Below, one piece after another: positions 9,563 through 15,794 of a DNA stretch of 64,000 nucleotides. The notes beneath the pieces were generated by a model. The model searched no databases and was not told where the DNA came from. It worked only from the letters and a program-made list of their open reading frames with translations. This stretch comes from a virus. Every line of letters starts with the position of its first letter. Positions within the stretch are counted from its first letter, which is position 1. The DNA lies in the IMG/VR virus record IMGVR_UViG_3300029305_001279. One strand, written 5' to 3'. The translations under genes and the position numbers were made by a program.

Positions 9563-10093
9563 ATGGAAGAGCAAGACATCTATATCCTGGAGCCGGAACC
9601 CTGGGAAAGGCAGCTGAATGAGTCTCCCCAGGCCTTTGAAGCGTTCGCCGCATACCGTGACATGGGAGCCGCGAGAAGTACAGCGAAAGTGTCCCGCCAA
9701 CTGTGTAAAAGTGTATCGCTGATGAACAGATGGTCTTCTGAGCACGACTGGGTGAAGCGTGTCGCTGCCTGGGATGCTGAAAAGGACCGTGTGGCCCGTC
9801 AGTCGCAGCTGAATGACATCAAAGCCATGCGTGAACGTCATGCTGCCATCGCAAAAAAAATGATGGACACAGCGGACAGCGCCCTCAACAACATCAATCC
9901 GAACGATGTCTCTACGAACGAGATCGCCCGCCTGGTCGAAATCGCAAGTAAGCTGGAGCGCATTTCCCGTGGCGACGTGGGCGATGTCATCGAGGAGCGC
10001 GATGGTGGCGAAGCGGTATCCCCTGTTCAGATCTACGTGCCGGATAACGGCCGGGGCAAGGACAAGGACACATTCAATGACCTGACGGTATAA
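9563..10093 (+). CDS. possible terminase small subunit / HTH protein
   Basis: The N-terminal ESPQAFEAFAAYRDMGAARSTAKVSRQL..SVSLMNRWSSEHDWVKR pattern recurs in phage packaging-module HTH proteins. The function is not proven. Confidence 0.35.
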   Translation: MEEQDIYILEPEPWERQLNESPQAFEAFAAYRDMGAARSTAKVSRQLCKSVSLMNRWSSEHDWVKRVAAWDAEKDRVARQSQLNDIKAMRERHAAIAKKMMDTADSALNNINPNDVSTNEIARLVEIASKLERISRGDVGDVIEERDGGEAVSPVQIYVPDNGRGKDKDTFNDLTV

Positions 10094-10174: not shown

Positions 10175-12077
10175 ATGAAATTAGGAAGCCTTTTTGATGG
10201 GTCGGGAGGATTCCCGCTCGCAGGAGAGCTTTGCGGCATAGAGCCGCGCTGGGCGGCTGAGATAGAGCCGTACCCAATCGCCGTTACAAGGGGGCGTTTC
10301 CCCTAACTTGGTACACCTTGGAAGTGTGACCGAGATCAACGGCGCAGAAATAGAAGCAGTAGATGTAATCACCTTTGGATCGCCGTGCCAGGATCTTTCC
10401 GTGGCTGGAAAGCGGGCAGGGCTGAAGCACTCAGCCAACGGCGACGATGAAACCACACGCAGCGGCCTATTCATGGAAGCCGTGCGAATCATCAAGGAAA
10501 TGAGGAAAGCCACAAATGGAAAATATCCGAAGTATGCAATATGGGAAAATGTCATGGGCGCCTTCAGCTCAAATGCCGGCGACGACTTCCGTGTCGTCCT
10601 CGAAGAACTCGTCAAAATCTGCGAACCGGAAGCACCCCCGATACCTTCGCCTGGTAAAGCGGGATGGCCATACGCCGACTGCATCATGGGAAACGGATTC
10701 AGCCTTGCTTACCGTGTTTTCGATGCGCAATACTGGCCCGGCACCCCTCAACGCAGAAAACGTATCTACCTTGTCCTCGATCTTACAGGCGAATGTGCCG
10801 AAAAAATACTATTTGAGCGCGAAGGCTTGCGAGGGCATTCTGAGAAGAGCCGAGCGCCGTGGGAAGGAGCTGCCGGAGATCCTCAAGGCCGCTCTGGAAC
10901 AGACGATCCAGAGAGCAGCATAATAGCCATCGATCAACAAGGCGGCAAAGGCAACGCAAATTATGCCGTCGATGTGATGCCTACACTTTGCAGCGATAGC
11001 CATGGCACCCCTCATGCGGTAGCATACGGTGTAACGAGCAAAGGTAATGGAGATAGCTTCATCTCAGAGGAACGGCATACCGCTTTATCTACAGGCGGAG
11101 GCCAACCGGGGCAGGGATATCCATGTGTGATGCAGCCCATAGCCTTCACCCAGAACCAGAGGGACGAACTGAGAGATCTGGGAGACAAAGCCGGAACCAT
11201 ACAAGCGGCGCCAGGAACGCATCAGCAGACCTTCATCATCGATAACATCGGAGGTCAAGCGGAATATGGAGTAGAAAGCACCGTAAACGGCACCCTTCGA
11301 GCTGGTGGGCTGGGCGCTATTTGCTACGATGCCAGAGGAAATGGTGATGGTAAAACCGTCAATACGATCACCGGTGACCACAACAACCGCATAACAGATT
11401 ATAGCTCTGTGGTGGTGTATAACGGTGAGAACATCACAAATCCAACGAACAAAGCAAACCCACAACCCGGTGACCCATGCCACACACTTGGAACCGATAG
11501 CAGGAATCACCTCGTATACTGCCTCCAAGGAAACGTCATTGACAGAGCCAATTCTGCCAGATGCAATGGCGAAGGATGGAAAGAGGATGTGTGCTACACC
11601 CTGAATACCATCGACCGACCGGCTGTATCATACTCAACCGATGTCGGATTCTTTAATACCTGCGAGGATGTGTCCCCGACCATGCTTGCAAGGATGTACA
11701 AAGACCCTCACCTCGTATGCTACGAGGAAGAACCGCAATACATAGTCCGTCGCCTCACCCCTACCGAGTGCGCCAGACTGCAAGGCTTCCCAGACCGATG
11801 GGGAGACATACCACACAAAGAAAACCTCACGGACGAAGAGTACAGCTTCTGGCTGAACGTCCGAAACACCCACGCAGCCATCAACGGCAGAACTACGAAA
11901 GAATACACCAAGGATCAAATCCTCAAATGGTACAATAAACTTCACTCAGACAGTTCCGAATACAAAATGTGGGGCAATGGGATCGCCTTACCAAATGCCT
12001 TGTATGTCATGCAGGGCATAGCGGAGGCAATTAACCATGGTCGAGATCGATACGGAGAAGTGAAACAGAAAGGATAG
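10175..12077 (+). CDS. DNA (cytosine-5) methyltransferase with a very long multi-TRD-like variable region; reading frame broken at 10304
   Basis: The 43-codon N-terminal piece (ATG 10175, AGGAGG upstream) carries motif I LFDGSGGF and motif II AEIEP, then stops at TAA 10304-10306. The next frame continues with SPCQDLS (IV), ENV (VI), QRRKR (VIII), RRLTPTECARLQGFP (IX) and GNGIA (X). Confidence 0.8.
10298..10307 (+). other. candidate +1 programmed frameshift site UUC-CCC-UAA-C
   Basis: Slipping CCC to CCU and then reading AAC gives ...GRFP-NLVHLG..., a contiguous MTase. AGGGGG lies 6 nt upstream and a bulged hairpin (10310-10331) lies downstream. Confidence 0.5.
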
Positions 12078-12086
12078 CAGGACAGC

Positions 12087-13157
12087 ATGATTAAATTGCT
12101 TATTGGCGGTTCCCCATGCACATTCTGGAGCATCGCCCAGAAGAATGGACGGGAAACCGAAGCAGAGGGCATGGGTTGGGAGCTGTTTAAGAACTACCTC
12201 ATTGCCAAGGAAAAATTCCAGCCGGACTTTTTCCTTTACGAAAACAACAAATCGGCAGCACAAGCCATCAAGGATCAGATATCACATGAGCTGGGTGTGG
12301 ATCTCATGCACATCAATAGTGCGCTGGTATCCGCGCAGAACCGTCAGCGATTCTACGCATTCAACTGGACGGTGGATCAGCCGGAGGACCGCGGCATTTC
12401 GCTGAACGAAATTCTGGAAGATACACCCGATGAAATAGGCTGCAAAGTTTCCGGAGTCGGATATAGAAACCGCAGAGAGAGCGACGGAAAGCTGTATAGG
12501 CGTTTTGAAACAGACGGCAATCCCAAATCCAACGCTCTGACAACGGTGGACACCGATAGTATGGTTTGCATACCCGCTCACAGCGTCGCACTCCGCGGAC
12601 GGGACCACAGATCTGCTTACGAAGTGAGCACCGGCGAAAAAGCGAATGCTCTCACGGGAAGTACCCAGCAACGGCGCATTATAAGACCTGCTGGAAAATT
12701 GCAAGACGGTATCACTTACGAGGTACATAATGGCCTTATTGAAATAAAAGGGAAAGAGTACCCCATCAATTTACCGGACGGCAGCTATGTGATGCGGCAT
12801 CTGACCCCGATAGAGTGCGAACGCCTACAGACGCTCCCTGATGGCTACACCGCCTGTGTGAGCAAAACCCAGCGACGGAAGGCTTTGGGCAACGGTTGGA
12901 CGGCGGAGGTGATTATTCACATCCTGAACGGCGCTCTGGCAAACGTTCCTCGGGACGAGGAGATTGTGGTGCTGTCCATGTATGACGGTATCGCTACCGG
13001 TCGGTATTGCTTGGACAAGATGGGCTTCACCAACGTGCGCTATTACGCCTACGAGATCGATAAGTACGCAATGCAAGTCGCATTATCGAATTACCCGGAC
13101 ATCATCCATTGCGGTGATGCGTTCGATCTGAGAAACCCGGATTGGACAATTAACTAA
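12087..13157 (+). CDS. DNMT3-like C5 DNA methyltransferase with circularly permuted motif order (IV-X then I-III)
   Basis: The protein starts MIKLLIGGSPCTFWS (IV), then YENN (VI), QNRQRFY (VIII), RHLTPIECERLQTLP (IX), GNGWTAEV (X). It then ends with VVLSMYDGIATG (I), YAYEID (II) and GDAFDL (III). Confidence 0.75.
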   Translation: MIKLLIGGSPCTFWSIAQKNGRETEAEGMGWELFKNYLIAKEKFQPDFFLYENNKSAAQAIKDQISHELGVDLMHINSALVSAQNRQRFYAFNWTVDQPEDRGISLNEILEDTPDEIGCKVSGVGYRNRRESDGKLYRRFETDGNPKSNALTTVDTDSMVCIPAHSVALRGRDHRSAYEVSTGEKANALTGSTQQRRIIRPAGKLQDGITYEVHNGLIEIKGKEYPINLPDGSYVMRHLTPIECERLQTLPDGYTACVSKTQRRKALGNGWTAEVIIHILNGALANVPRDEEIVVLSMYDGIATGRYCLDKMGFTNVRYYAYEIDKYAMQVALSNYPDIIHCGDAFDLRNPDWTIN

Positions 13158-13247: not shown

Positions 13248-13321
13248 GGATCAGCGGGGTGTGGCACCCATCTGCACAAAAGCTGCAGAAAGAGTCGGTT
13301 CGATTCCGGTCTGTTCCACCA
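13248..13321 (+). tRNA. non-canonical tRNA-like gene (anticodon loop CAAAAGC, nominal anticodon AAA, A at position 33)
   Basis: Acceptor GGATCAG/CTGTTCC (one T-T mismatch). D stem GGGT/ACCC with a 5-nt loop. Anticodon stem CTGCA/TGCAG, extendable to 6 bp. T arm GTCGG-TTCGATT-CCGGT. Discriminator A, with CCA encoded. Confidence 0.4.
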
Positions 13322-13696
13322 TGCGTGTGGCTCACGCACCCTTGAAACGATACATAGGGGAAAAGGGCTCTCTGTTTCTGTGGTGCAGCACGCAACAGAG
13401 GTGGCGACATAAATTATTAGATTGGCTGGCTCCGGCTTATAAAATCGAACGGATGCGACCGATGCACCGGCGCAGGGCTGAAAAGTTCCGTGATATTCCT
13501 TGGTATGGCTCTGGAATCGCAGAGCGAGGCGAAAAGGCCACCTGCAACGCGAGCGAAAGAGGCCGGCGGGTGGATAGAAGGATAATTGTGGAGTGGTACC
13601 GGCGGAGCTGAGGTTCCAGGCCGGTGTGTAGTTCACAGTGGTTACAGACCATACCGGGGATATGGTGAAAAGGAATACCCAGGAAAAGGAGAATAT
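13322..13696 (+). ncRNA. candidate structured non-coding RNA region (identity unknown)
   Basis: No credible ORF. Many local and long-range complementary segments, including 13322-13339, 13369-13400 and 13508-13525, plus CACCGGC 13465-13471 pairing with GCCGGTG 13620-13626. It lies between the tRNA-like element and tRNA-Thr. Confidence 0.25.
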
Positions 13697-14118: not shown

Positions 14119-14210
14119 AAATACGTAACTATACTTTGCATATTTTCCGGCAAAGATGAAAGTTTGAGCATCAAAACAGAAAAATACGCAAATTGAAAGG
14201 GGGCGATGCC

Positions 14211-15794
14211 ATGATTATTCGTCCGCAGCCGAAGCAGGAGGAATTCCTGAGCAATCCGGCAGACATCATCATTTATGGTGGAGCCGCGGGCGGTGGTTAG
14301 CAAGGTAAGACATACGCCCTCCTCTTGGAAGAGTGCCGCAACAGCGACAACCCACGATTCAACTCGGTAATCTTCCGTAGAAATAACACACAGATCTTCA
14401 CGAACGGCGGTCTCTGGGATTCCGGCATGGCTCTGCTCCCTCTGATCGGCGCACAGCCGAAGAAAACCCCGAAACCGTCCTTCATCTTCCCATCCGGCGC
14501 AAAGGTAACATTCGACCACCTGGAACGTTACAGCGACTGCCTCTCTTACCAGGGCTCGCAGATCGTCTTCATCGGCTTTGACGAGCTGACCCACTTCGAC
14601 GAGGATGTCTTCTGGTATATGCTGTCCCGTAACCGTTCGGACTCCGGTATTCCCGGCTATGTCCGAGCTACCACCAACCCTGACCCTGACTCATGGGTCC
14701 GCACATTCATTGACTGGTGGATTGGCCCTGATGGTCTGGCTATCCCGGAGCGCAGCGGCAAGATCCGCTGGATGATCCGAATCAACGGCGAGGTGGTCTG
14801 GGGCAATTCCCGGATGGAGCTGCTGCAGCGGCAGTTTGATGGTGACATCACCGCCGTGGACAAGAGCCACACATCGACGGATGAACTGTTCGTTCCGGAT
14901 CCAAAGGACAGCAAGATCCAGATCATCGTCAAGCCCGGTGTGGAGGGCACACTGTACATAGCTACTCAGACAAAGCAGTTCTTCCAATGGTCAGGCGGTG
15001 AGTACCGGGAGCTGATGCCCCCGAAGTCCGTGACCTTCATCTGCTCCACATTGCAGGACAATGCCATCCTGATGAAGAATGACCCGAGCTACCTGGCCAA
15101 CCTGAAGGCCCTGCCCCTCGTTGAACAGGAGCGGCTGCTGGGCGGCAACTGGAACATCCGTCCTGCTGCTGGCCTTTACTTCCCTCGTGACAAGGCGAAG
15201 CTCATTGACGAGATACCGGATGACCTGGTGCGTGTTGTCCGCGCATGGGACCTTGCAGGCACAGAGGACAAGAAGAACAACAACCCCGAGGACGGCCCCG
15301 CATACACGGCCGGTGTGCTGATCGGCAAGCGCAAGAGCGGAAAGCTGGTTGTCCTCGACGTTATCAATAAGCGGCTCAATGCCAGCGATGTGCGAAACCT
15401 GGTATTGACCACCGCACGAGCTGACAAGGCAGCATATAAATCCAAATACAGAATCCGCATGAACCAGGATCCCGGCCAGGCCGGTGTGGATCAGAAGGAA
15501 CAGTACATAAAGCTGCTGTCCGGCTTCAGCGTCAACATCGAGCGAGAGTCCGGCAGCAAGGAAGTCCGCGCGGAGCCGCTGTCTGCTCAGTGGATCAACG
15601 GCAATGTGGAAGTCCTGAACAGACCATGGACATCAGAGTACCTGGCCCAGCTGGACGGCTTCCCAGACCGGAAGTTCAAGGATATGGCCGATGCCAGCAA
15701 CACAGGCTTCCTGGAGCTGGAGAAGTTCAACACCGTATCCGTACCGAAGGACAACAGTGCCCTGGCCAAGCAGAGCTACTGGTTCAAGAATTAA
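14211..15794 (+). CDS. terL: terminase large subunit, interrupted by an in-frame TAG at 14298-14300
   Basis: ATG 14211 follows AAGGGGG. The sequence MIIRPQPKQEEFLSNPADIIIYGGAAGGG-TAG-QGKTYALLLEE... stays in one frame throughout, with the Walker A motif straddling the stop. The remaining 489 codons are TerL-like. Confidence 0.8.
14295..14306 (+). other. candidate recoding site GGU-UAG-CAA-GGU (hop or stop read-through)
   Basis: Identical Gly codons flank the stop. Re-pairing of peptidyl-tRNA-Gly from 14295 to 14304 would give YGGAAGGGKTYALL. Confidence 0.35.

Follow-up and report, generated by a model that had tools for sequence, protein, structure and literature searches.

The 64,000-nucleotide stretch of viral DNA considered here, IMG/VR record IMGVR_UViG_3300029305_001279 and hereafter referred to as the window, carries at 12087..13157 on the plus strand an open reading frame (ORF) that runs from an ATG start to a TAA stop and encodes a protein of 356 amino acids. 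The evidence indicates, with a probability of roughly 0.85 in our estimation, that this ORF represents a genuine, selectively maintained Dnmt3-like prokaryotic or phage C5 DNA methyltransferase (MTase) with a circular permutation of its one catalytic domain, which is of the Rossmann type. The canonical linear order of motifs I to X does not occur in the protein; instead, the order is IV-VI-VIII-TRD-IX-X-linker-I-II-III, with TRD denoting the target-recognition domain. The enzyme class and the permutation of MTases are already known, and what is new is the topology with its breakpoint between motifs III and IV, which is apparently unreported in nature for C5 enzymes.

Colinear homology after cyclic rearrangement

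An earlier note, made from the nucleotide sequence, had read the ORF as motifs IV to X followed by I to III, and this order held under alignment to PDB sequences with phmmer and to the PF00145 profile. In the phmmer comparison, the window protein matched the catalytic domain of DNMT3A in three pieces that were out of order: residues 291-345 aligned to DNMT3A 7-62 (motifs I-III), residues 3-94 to DNMT3A 77-173 (motifs IV-VIII) and residues 240-280 to DNMT3A 235-277 (motifs IX-X). The native protein covered only positions 62-319 of PF00145, with 67 bits at a cut-off of 22, and when residues 286-356 were put in front the match extended without a break from position 3 to position 319 of the 324 and rose to 82 bits. 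The TIGR00675 profile scored 60 bits, below its cut-off of 100.65, because only profile positions 63-326 can align.

Un-permuting the query had a corresponding effect in BLASTP. Single alignments covering residues 10-355 were obtained with about 18 phage MTases of canonical order (E-values of 1e-65 to 1e-80, 35-40% identity), and these alignments ran across the artificial seam at residues 71|72. The canonical Dnmt3-like phage enzymes are thus clear full-length homologues of the un-permuted query, likewise phage-borne orphans, and share with it the signatures LSLFDG.., YxxEID, LIGGSPC, INSALVSAQNRxR and RKLTPxECERLQTxPDxYT...GNGWTVDVIxHI. They differ in running from motif I to motif X, whereas in the window protein motif IV comes first and motif III last. 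When its two ends are rejoined (GDAFDLRNPDWTIN|MIKLLIGGSPC), the distance from GD to GG is 18 residues compared to 16-18 in canonical relatives, in agreement with the earlier placement of the breakpoint in the III-to-IV connection. The window protein is therefore a true circular permutant, as colinear full-length homology is obtained only after cyclic rearrangement and no segment has been lost.

Gene and motif layout

The complete permuted gene of 356 codons and the TAA stop (12087..13157, supported by the ORF list, the PF00145 match and identical loci) is preceded by a Shine-Dalgarno-like AGGA at 12079..12082, read directly from the sequence, 4 nt 5' of the ATG. This and all features below lie on the plus strand, and residues called invariant are so among 87 diverse family members. 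Upstream of the ATG, the frame stays open for only three codons before it meets a stop, and hence there is no hidden N-terminal extension with motifs I-III.

The catalytic half comes first. Strand β4 and motif IV (LLIGGSPCTFWS, residues 4-15, 12096..12131) align to motif IV of DNMT3A and overlap a modelled strand at residues 2-8; they include the catalytic Cys11, which is invariant together with P10 and G8. Motif VI (FFLYENNKS, residues 48-56, 12228..12254), also aligned to DNMT3A, holds the ENN-type glutamate, with Glu52 and N53 invariant, and motif VIII (SAQNRQRFY, residues 82-90, 12330..12356) holds the invariant Q84, R86 and R88. The variable, target-recognition region follows at residues 95-236 (12369..12794); the distance between motifs VIII and IX ranges from 41 to 379 amino acids across 273 family members. 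Motif IX (RHLTPIECERLQTLPDGYT, residues 237-255, 12795..12851) aligns to DNMT3A, DRM and HhaI and contains the invariant R237, E243, L247 and Q248. In motif X with its helix (RRKALGNGWTAEVIIHIL, residues 263-280, 12873..12926), N269 and W271 are invariant, and the modelled helix spans residues 273-284.

The two halves are joined by the X-to-I linker NGALANVPRDEE (residues 281-292, 12927..12962), which connects ends that are the C- and N-termini in canonical enzymes. Its length of 12 amino acids is in line with the earlier estimate, and in 271 of the 273 permuted proteins the motif I pattern begins 26-28 residues after the beginning of GNGW. Strand β1 and motif I (IVVLSMYDGIATGRYCL, residues 293-309, 12963..13013), with the loop binding S-adenosylmethionine (AdoMet), align to VLSLFDGIATG of DNMT3A and overlap a modelled strand at 293-298; S297, Y299, D300 and G301 are invariant. 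Motif II (YYAYEIDKYA, residues 319-328, 13041..13070, modelled strand 317-322) carries the invariant Y319, Glu323 and D325, and motif III (DIIHCGDAF, residues 338-346, 13098..13124) the invariant G343 and A345. Among the AdoMet motifs, YDGIATG at 299-305, E323, G343-D344 and G268-N269 are conserved, with G305 and D344 nearly invariant (at least 90%). The last 10 amino acids, DLRNPDWTIN (13125..13154), with R349 and W353 invariant, are colinear with GDVF.ADF.QY..D of canonical relatives, and this tail is what remains of the III-to-IV connection, at which canonical enzymes continue into β4.

Predicted fold and mechanism

An AlphaFold (AF2) model built from 87 diverse family sequences reached a mean predicted local distance difference test score (pLDDT) of 85.3 and a predicted template modelling score (pTM) of 0.85. 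Low pLDDT values were confined to residues 166-206 in the variable region, and both the IV-X and the I-III modules exceeded 90. The N-terminal part of the model consists of β4 (2-8), a helix (28-44), β5 (48-54), a helix (59-69), β6, β7 and the TRD sheet; the C-terminal part consists of the motif IX helix, the motif X helix (273-284), β1 (293-298), a helix, β2 (317-322), a further helix and β3. As modelled, this order is the one expected for a class-I MTase read from β4.

The earlier note had suggested alignment or structure prediction against the Dnmt3 and M.HhaI folds. Foldseek comparison of the model with the PDB ranked DNMT3A, DNMT3B and DNMT3C first (E 8e-11), followed by tobacco DRM (ntDRM), M.HhaI and Arabidopsis DRM2. 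The template modelling (TM) scores were about 0.45, probably because Foldseek alignments depend on sequence order. The same search against BFVD yielded no full-length colinear match (best TM-score 0.48) and is neutral with respect to novelty. The closeness to Dnmt3 that had been noticed at first reading was thereby borne out, as DNMT3A/3B/3C are the best solved-structure relatives by sequence (E 6e-10) as well as by fold, and YDGIATG of the window protein matches the xDGIATG pattern of motif I, FDGIATG in these enzymes. They differ in their canonical order and short TRD, and their identity to the window protein is only about 20%. Mammalian DNMT3 enzymes additionally carry eukaryotic regulatory domains (PWWP, ADD). 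The window protein, a phage protein of 356 amino acids with PF00145 as its sole Pfam domain, is hence Dnmt3-like and not a Dnmt3. In JGI annotations, relatives carry the label 'DNMT3A'.

In this reading, the chain begins one turn before β4 and the catalytic Pro-Cys loop and passes through motifs VI and VIII, a modular TRD and motifs IX and X, from where the linker of about 12 residues leads into β1-β3 with motifs I-III and the AdoMet pocket. The C-terminal I-III module would pack in cis beside β4 and the motif X helix and thus rebuild an ordinary active site. Cys11 in the loop after β4 would act as the nucleophile attacking C6, Glu52 of ENN would protonate N3 and, together with Arg86 and Arg88, hold the flipped cytosine, and the methyl group would come from AdoMet held by motifs I-III and X. 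We take these roles of Cys11, Glu52, Arg86/Arg88 and motifs I-III and X to be the same as those established for M.HhaI and DNMT3A. The variable region would read the target sequence, and specificity would be set by exchangeable TRD modules.

Some points weigh against an active single-chain enzyme. A first AlphaFold model, based on a shallow alignment of 51 sequences of low diversity, reached a pLDDT of 61 and gave only weak matches to DRM. The packing of the I-III module in cis is deduced from the high pTM and pLDDT values rather than from contacts, and enzymatic activity and the 5-methylcytosine (5mC) product are predictions for every member of the family.

The alternative that survives best is an assembly in trans, in which motifs I-III of one chain complete motifs IV-X of another within a domain-swapped obligate dimer. 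The motif order is that of class β, whose members have been argued to be active only as dimers (PMC7544214), the nearest homologues DNMT3A and DNMT3B act as dimers or tetramers according to PDB entry titles, and the invariant R349 and W353 of the tail have no known catalytic role. We nevertheless regard such an obligate dimer as unlikely, as the monomer was modelled with high confidence in both modules and overall, the 12-residue linker resembles the fused tail and leader of tandem proteins, and engineered permutants were single-chain proteins, many of which kept MTase activity (PMC5944983).

A large family under purifying selection

Homologue searches with the window protein and with the divergent member P0259 each returned at least 8000 candidates. 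Among the best 120 matches to the window protein, all 119 full-length proteins started with MIK[LI]LIGGSPC and had motif I about 30 residues past GNGW. In the search seeded with P0259, 87 of 118 matches were full-length proteins with the permuted order, the most distant being about 40% identical to the window protein. A query restricted to the junction region (residues 225-356) was compared with 1.84 billion representatives of 50%-identity clusters, and about 130 of the best 150 matches crossed from X to I in one stretch. In addition, a simple motif pattern detected the permuted order at 124 of 152 genomic loci. The search for homologues with the same order, which the earlier note had called for, has thus turned a single gene into a very large conserved family, with more than 270 proteins sharing the arrangement. 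The borders of these proteins are well defined: GG.PC is preceded by 6 residues in 221 of the 273 permuted proteins (range 2-13), and most of the chains end 60-73 residues after the start of motif I, the common end lying about 10 residues past motif III. The total length varies from 322 to 604 amino acids.

Between moderately diverged pairs, the median ratio of nonsynonymous to synonymous substitution rates (dN/dS) was 0.06 for IV-VIII, 0.07 for the I-III block in its new position and 0.08 for IX-X. The gene could in principle be the decaying remnant of a tandem MTase pair, with a vestigial I-III block or an altogether inactive protein, and the same phage does carry a frameshifted MTase and a terL gene with an in-frame stop. 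Should these interruptions be signs of decay and not of recoding, one could be dealing with a prophage in degeneration, which is a further point against a maintained enzyme. However, the I-III block is constrained like the catalytic blocks, its motif I, II and III residues are invariant in the 87 diverse members, the start and end positions are fixed, both parts folded with confidence in the model and the family is huge, all of which renders a decaying remnant very unlikely.

The variable region looks modular. A first module, (I/V)xGR...G(K/R)...K(A/S)NxLTTVxxDS, occurs in all members and also in canonical relatives, and a terminal block, YEV.xG.I.IKG..YPI.L.DG.Y, is common to all family members; between them lie zero to several modules of the type Q..R.Y..GK..T...GGG.G.KTGLY. 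The window protein has two K[AS]NALT-type modules followed by the conserved YEV..G.I.IKG..YPI.L.DG hairpin block. The C5-MTases of the Bacillus phages SPR, phi3T and rho11s are multispecific orphan enzymes with several tandem TRD modules in their variable region. The repeated modules found here resemble them, and multispecificity may extend to the window family, although the Bacillus phage enzymes have the canonical order and belong to a different subfamily.

Another possibility is a different substrate or role, e.g., that of an RNA m5C methyltransferase such as Dnmt2, or DNA binding without catalysis. The substrate cannot be read from sequence alone, and Dnmt2 is an example of a change of substrate within this fold (PMC3227630). 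The window protein, however, has all DNA C5-MTase motifs, motif IX among them, and its TRD is akin to the TRDs of canonical DNA MTases from phages; its best matches are DNA enzymes, and the gene lies in a phage packaging region beside another DNA MTase, so that the chance of another substrate appears close to negligible.

An artefact of assembly or annotation, i.e., a chimeric join or misassembly of two MTase genes or of a tandem pair, might be suspected since two MTase genes adjoin in the window and metagenome assemblies can collapse tandem repeats, and is effectively refuted by the occurrence of the identical protein on 18 contigs, which come from independent samples of JGI and ENA and from different assemblers, by the identity of nucleotides and flanks in 8 of 8 loci examined, by the same order in the more than 270 diverged proteins, including those of the isolates Butyricicoccus pullicaecorum DSM 23266 and Flavonifractor sp. 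An82, and by the upstream MTase being of a different subfamily (FGSPCQ, ENV).

Two peculiarities were observed within the family. P0137 (761 amino acids), P0206 (853 amino acids) and the members of their clusters (7 and 3 members, on separate contigs) contain an intein-like insertion of about 400 residues exactly at the catalytic Pro-Cys, with the pattern GGSP|CFVAGT...VVHN|CT[HY]WS. About 50 of the 273 members (P0002-P0004, P0024 and others) have an additional C-terminal extension of about 100 residues, which the window protein lacks; it is acidic and of low complexity, then helical, and ends with ...LRYNCDIIALEYAIGALRR.

Origin of the permuted order

More distant relatives from cultured phages have the canonical I-X order, examples being Roseobacter phage CRP-9 gp12, Flavobacterium phage FPSV-S27 'Dcm', Vibrio phage 1.242.O gp47 and Pseudoalteromonas phage H40/1 gp22, and a canonical sister lineage of the ENN/CTYWS type is common in IMG/VR (loci L157-L183). 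Tandem and partly duplicated relatives occur as well. P0195 (962 amino acids; its cluster is found on five contigs, the longest of 212 kb) and P0167 (618 amino acids, one contig) are tandem fusions of the form [I-X][I-X], P0197 (one contig) and P0202 (4 contigs) have the form [TRD-IX-X][I-X], and P0257 has a duplicated TRD-IX-X. In a neighbour-joining tree calculated from 313 conserved columns of un-permuted cores with 100 bootstraps, the permuted proteins formed a clade with copy B of P0195 in 97 of 100 bootstraps.

The earlier note had considered the position of the breakpoint to be what duplication followed by truncation predicts. This model agrees with the existence of the natural tandem-fused and partly duplicated relatives and with the grouping of the permuted proteins beside one copy of P0195, and the route itself has the status of a plausible reconstruction rather than of a proven one. 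The geometry of the seam fits a head-to-tail fusion that was subsequently trimmed: the linker comprises 14 residues between HIL and VLS, and a canonical C-terminal tail together with an N-terminal leader, e.g., HILNKIKETDIEK plus MK, comprises 12. Most likely, the permuted enzymes would have a single origin from a canonical-order phage enzyme, the probable route being a head-to-tail duplication or fusion that subsequently shed its leading I-III block and its trailing IV-X block, after which the gene may have spread as cargo among phages and prophages of gut Clostridia.

The phylogenetic data leave room for doubt about this route. The tree is a simple neighbour-joining tree, and the permuted proteins alone formed a clade in only 40 of 100 bootstraps, because copy B of P0195 sometimes nests inside it. 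P0167, P0197 and P0202 belong to another clade of canonical enzymes, and the tandem and partial forms may be independent parallel events instead of true intermediates. The broader proposal is that of a large natural class of C5-MTases with class-β order (IV-TRD-X-I-III), undescribed in the searchable literature, of which the window protein would be the founding example. The class would have a single origin, in which a Dnmt3-like phage enzyme was duplicated or fused in tandem and then truncated, and its tandem-fused and partly duplicated relatives would survive in the gene pool. Taken as a whole, we consider the chances for and against this proposal to be evenly balanced.

Relation to known permutations and significance

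Natural permutation of C5-MTases is known from two other arrangements. Enzymes of the M.BssHII type (ζ or 'type H': M.BssHII, M.Alw26I, M2.Eco31I, M.Esp3I, M2.BsaI) also represent a natural prokaryotic permutation with motif X before motif I. They have their N-terminus in the variable region and motifs IX-X before I-VIII, which leaves the two structural domains intact (PMC5944983), whereas the window protein is broken inside the large domain between β3 and β4 and has an internal TRD. The earlier note had rightly set M.BssHII apart, as having IX-X first, and had known of no other permuted C5 arrangement; plant DRM is a second one, and its motif rearrangement is an established natural C5 permutation (PMC3934875; PMC3227630). 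DRM1/2 are Dnmt3-related, share the covalent X-to-I junction and are colinear with residues 237-329 of the window protein; DRM was the top Foldseek match of the first model and ranked just under DNMT3 for the second. In DRM, however, motifs VI-X precede I-IV/V, so that the PC motif is C-terminal (PMC3934875), and not at residues 10-11 as in the window protein, and the DRM proteins are eukaryotic and carry UBA domains. A specific evolutionary link between the phage enzymes and DRM is not claimed, as the X-to-I junction and the common likeness to Dnmt3 would be the sole evidence.

A breakpoint in or near the III/IV interval has previously been obtained by engineering. The 'type C' permutants of M.MpeI and M.SssI, one of ten permutant classes of these enzymes with detectable activity, and the first group of M.HaeIII permutants from directed evolution have this or a nearby breakpoint, and both kept MTase activity (PMC5944983). 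These proteins are artificial, whereas the window family is natural. The order IV, TRD, I is also that of the class-β N6A/N4C MTases (M.PvuII, M.RsrI, CcrM, M.EcoGII) (PMC7544214). The likeness to these enzymes concerns topology only, as they are not close homologues and differ in chemistry and in motif IV, which is (D/S)PPY and not PC.

Among DNA MTases, the C5 enzymes are regarded as the uniform class. A search of REBASE for natural C5 permutants in 2018 retrieved only the variable-region type, and its authors concluded that nature favours breakpoints that leave the two domains intact (PMC5944983); a weakening of AdoMet binding by topologies like the present one was also suggested in 2018. 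Similarly, a review of 2020 mentioned only "one alternative permutation" of the C5-MTase motif order (PMC7544214), and a topology classification of prokaryotic MTases, in its preprint version of December 2025, lists two m5C classes only (10.1101/2023.12.13.571470). In the searchable full-text literature, which does not comprise subscription-only literature and REBASE itself, no description of a natural C5 family with a III/IV breakpoint was found.

The family is therefore of interest as an abundant one under strong purifying selection despite a large domain broken between β3 and β4. It provides a natural counterpart to the engineered permutants, offers a test of the effect of motif order on AdoMet affinity or oligomeric state and shows why profile annotation (TIGR00675, motif-order classifiers) under-scores such genes. 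If the proposal of a class with class-β order and an origin by duplication is true, the family would be a natural record of permutation by duplication, previously shown for this fold by directed evolution alone, and the class may share the dimer dependence proposed for class-β enzymes.

Distribution, genomic context and likely role

Genomic relatives were found in isolates and metagenome-assembled genomes of gut Clostridia and on many IMG/VR viral contigs. In addition to the two isolates named above, carriers are Criibacterium bergeronii and Acutalibacter intestini, and further carriers belong to the Oscillospiraceae, Lachnospiraceae and Christensenellaceae. The orthologue of B. pullicaecorum DSM 23266, P0003, has 74% identity to the window protein. 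In the window, the permuted MTase gene follows terS (9563..10093) and a Dcm-like MTase gene (10175..12077) and precedes three tRNA genes, terL and a portal gene. A synteny comparison showed that these neighbours are not conserved beside the homologues at the 152 other loci, and the context thus provides no functional partner; the permuted MTase gene accordingly appears as an independent mobile cargo gene. At the DNA level, a search of the region against GenBank phages returned tRNA matches only, and hence there is no close cultured phage relative.

A cognate endonuclease alongside, as in restriction-modification systems, was not found, as the neighbours are terS, a second MTase gene, tRNA genes and terL; no nuclease partner is evident among the window neighbours, not all of which were the object of a dedicated nuclease search. 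A setting of terS, MTase, tRNAs and terL without evident nuclease would be usual for an orphan phage methylase directed against host restriction. The likely role of the protein is that of an orphan, TRD-variable anti-restriction methylase of phages of gut Clostridia, which in the phage would be expressed late and shield the phage DNA from host restriction. Widespread predicted anti-restriction methylases with exchangeable TRDs in these phages would matter for host range and for 5mC signals in gut metagenomes.

The three confirmed tRNA genes of the window are Thr-TGT, Gly-TCC and Lys-TTT. At 13248-13321, ARAGORN additionally proposed a tRNA-Phe whose anticodon, AAA, is unusual; this candidate is without Rfam support at E <= 0.01. 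Between this candidate and tRNA-Thr, about 375 nt (13322-13696) are without assigned feature.

Reading-frame interruptions in the upstream MTase gene and terL

Two genes near the permuted MTase gene are interrupted. The upstream Dcm-like C5-MTase gene (10175-12077, plus strand) is split into an ORF of 43 amino acids with motif I and an ORF of 589 amino acids, which are joined by a +1 shift at about 10290-10310 (AGGGGG CGT TTC CCC TAA C TTG, giving ...RFPNLVHLG...). In this site, a Shine-Dalgarno-like AGGGGG is followed by a slippery CCC and then by a stop codon with a C after it; the site is identical in four independent assemblies and resembles the +1 frameshift cassette of prfB. Of 50 relatives in other phages in which the PC motif was found, 46 were without such a shift, and the other four were pattern misses, lay at a contig edge or had an unclear upstream region. 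At its 3' end (12075-12089, GGA TAG CAG GAC AGC ATG), the TAG of the upstream gene, 9 nt and the ATG of the permuted MTase gene lie in one frame, which is probably coincidental. A fusion of the two MTases by read-through was rejected as an explanation for the permuted gene, as its homologues have the same start Met even where their surroundings are unrelated.

The terL gene (14193..15794, plus strand) contains an in-frame TAG at 14298-14300 inside the Walker A P-loop (YGGAAGGG*QGKT). The codons read tat ggt gga gcc gcg ggc ggt GGT TAG CAA GGT aag aca, with a 9-nt insert between identical GGT codons, and the insert is identical in six independent assemblies. Homologous TerL proteins read YGGAAGG---GKT, and a hop from GGT to GGT would restore GGAAGGGKT exactly. 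A suppressor tRNA was not found in the window. TAG is the rarest stop in the window, with 7 uses in about 70 ORFs; a global reassignment of TAG, TGA or TAA in the phage was found to be unsupported, and reading TAG as sense barely lengthens plus-strand ORFs.

Comparable inserts were seen in three terL relatives, and seven others are without insert. At a second site, where other relatives read EEFLS, the gene of L248 (about 930-945) has TTT CTT TAG CTA TCC and that of L255 TTT CTT TAG CTT TCG. In L254, the P-loop contains an 8-nt insert that changes the frame (GGC GGC TAA CT GGT GGG AAG ACG) and which codon reassignment cannot explain. In each of the three, a skip from the take-off codon to a synonymous landing codon restores the consensus. 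The inserts in the window and in the related terL genes have the appearance of sites at which translation is programmed to bypass a stop codon in a short hop, and they resemble the case of Streptomyces phage Hau3, for whose terminase candidate bypassing has been proposed (PMC10732093).

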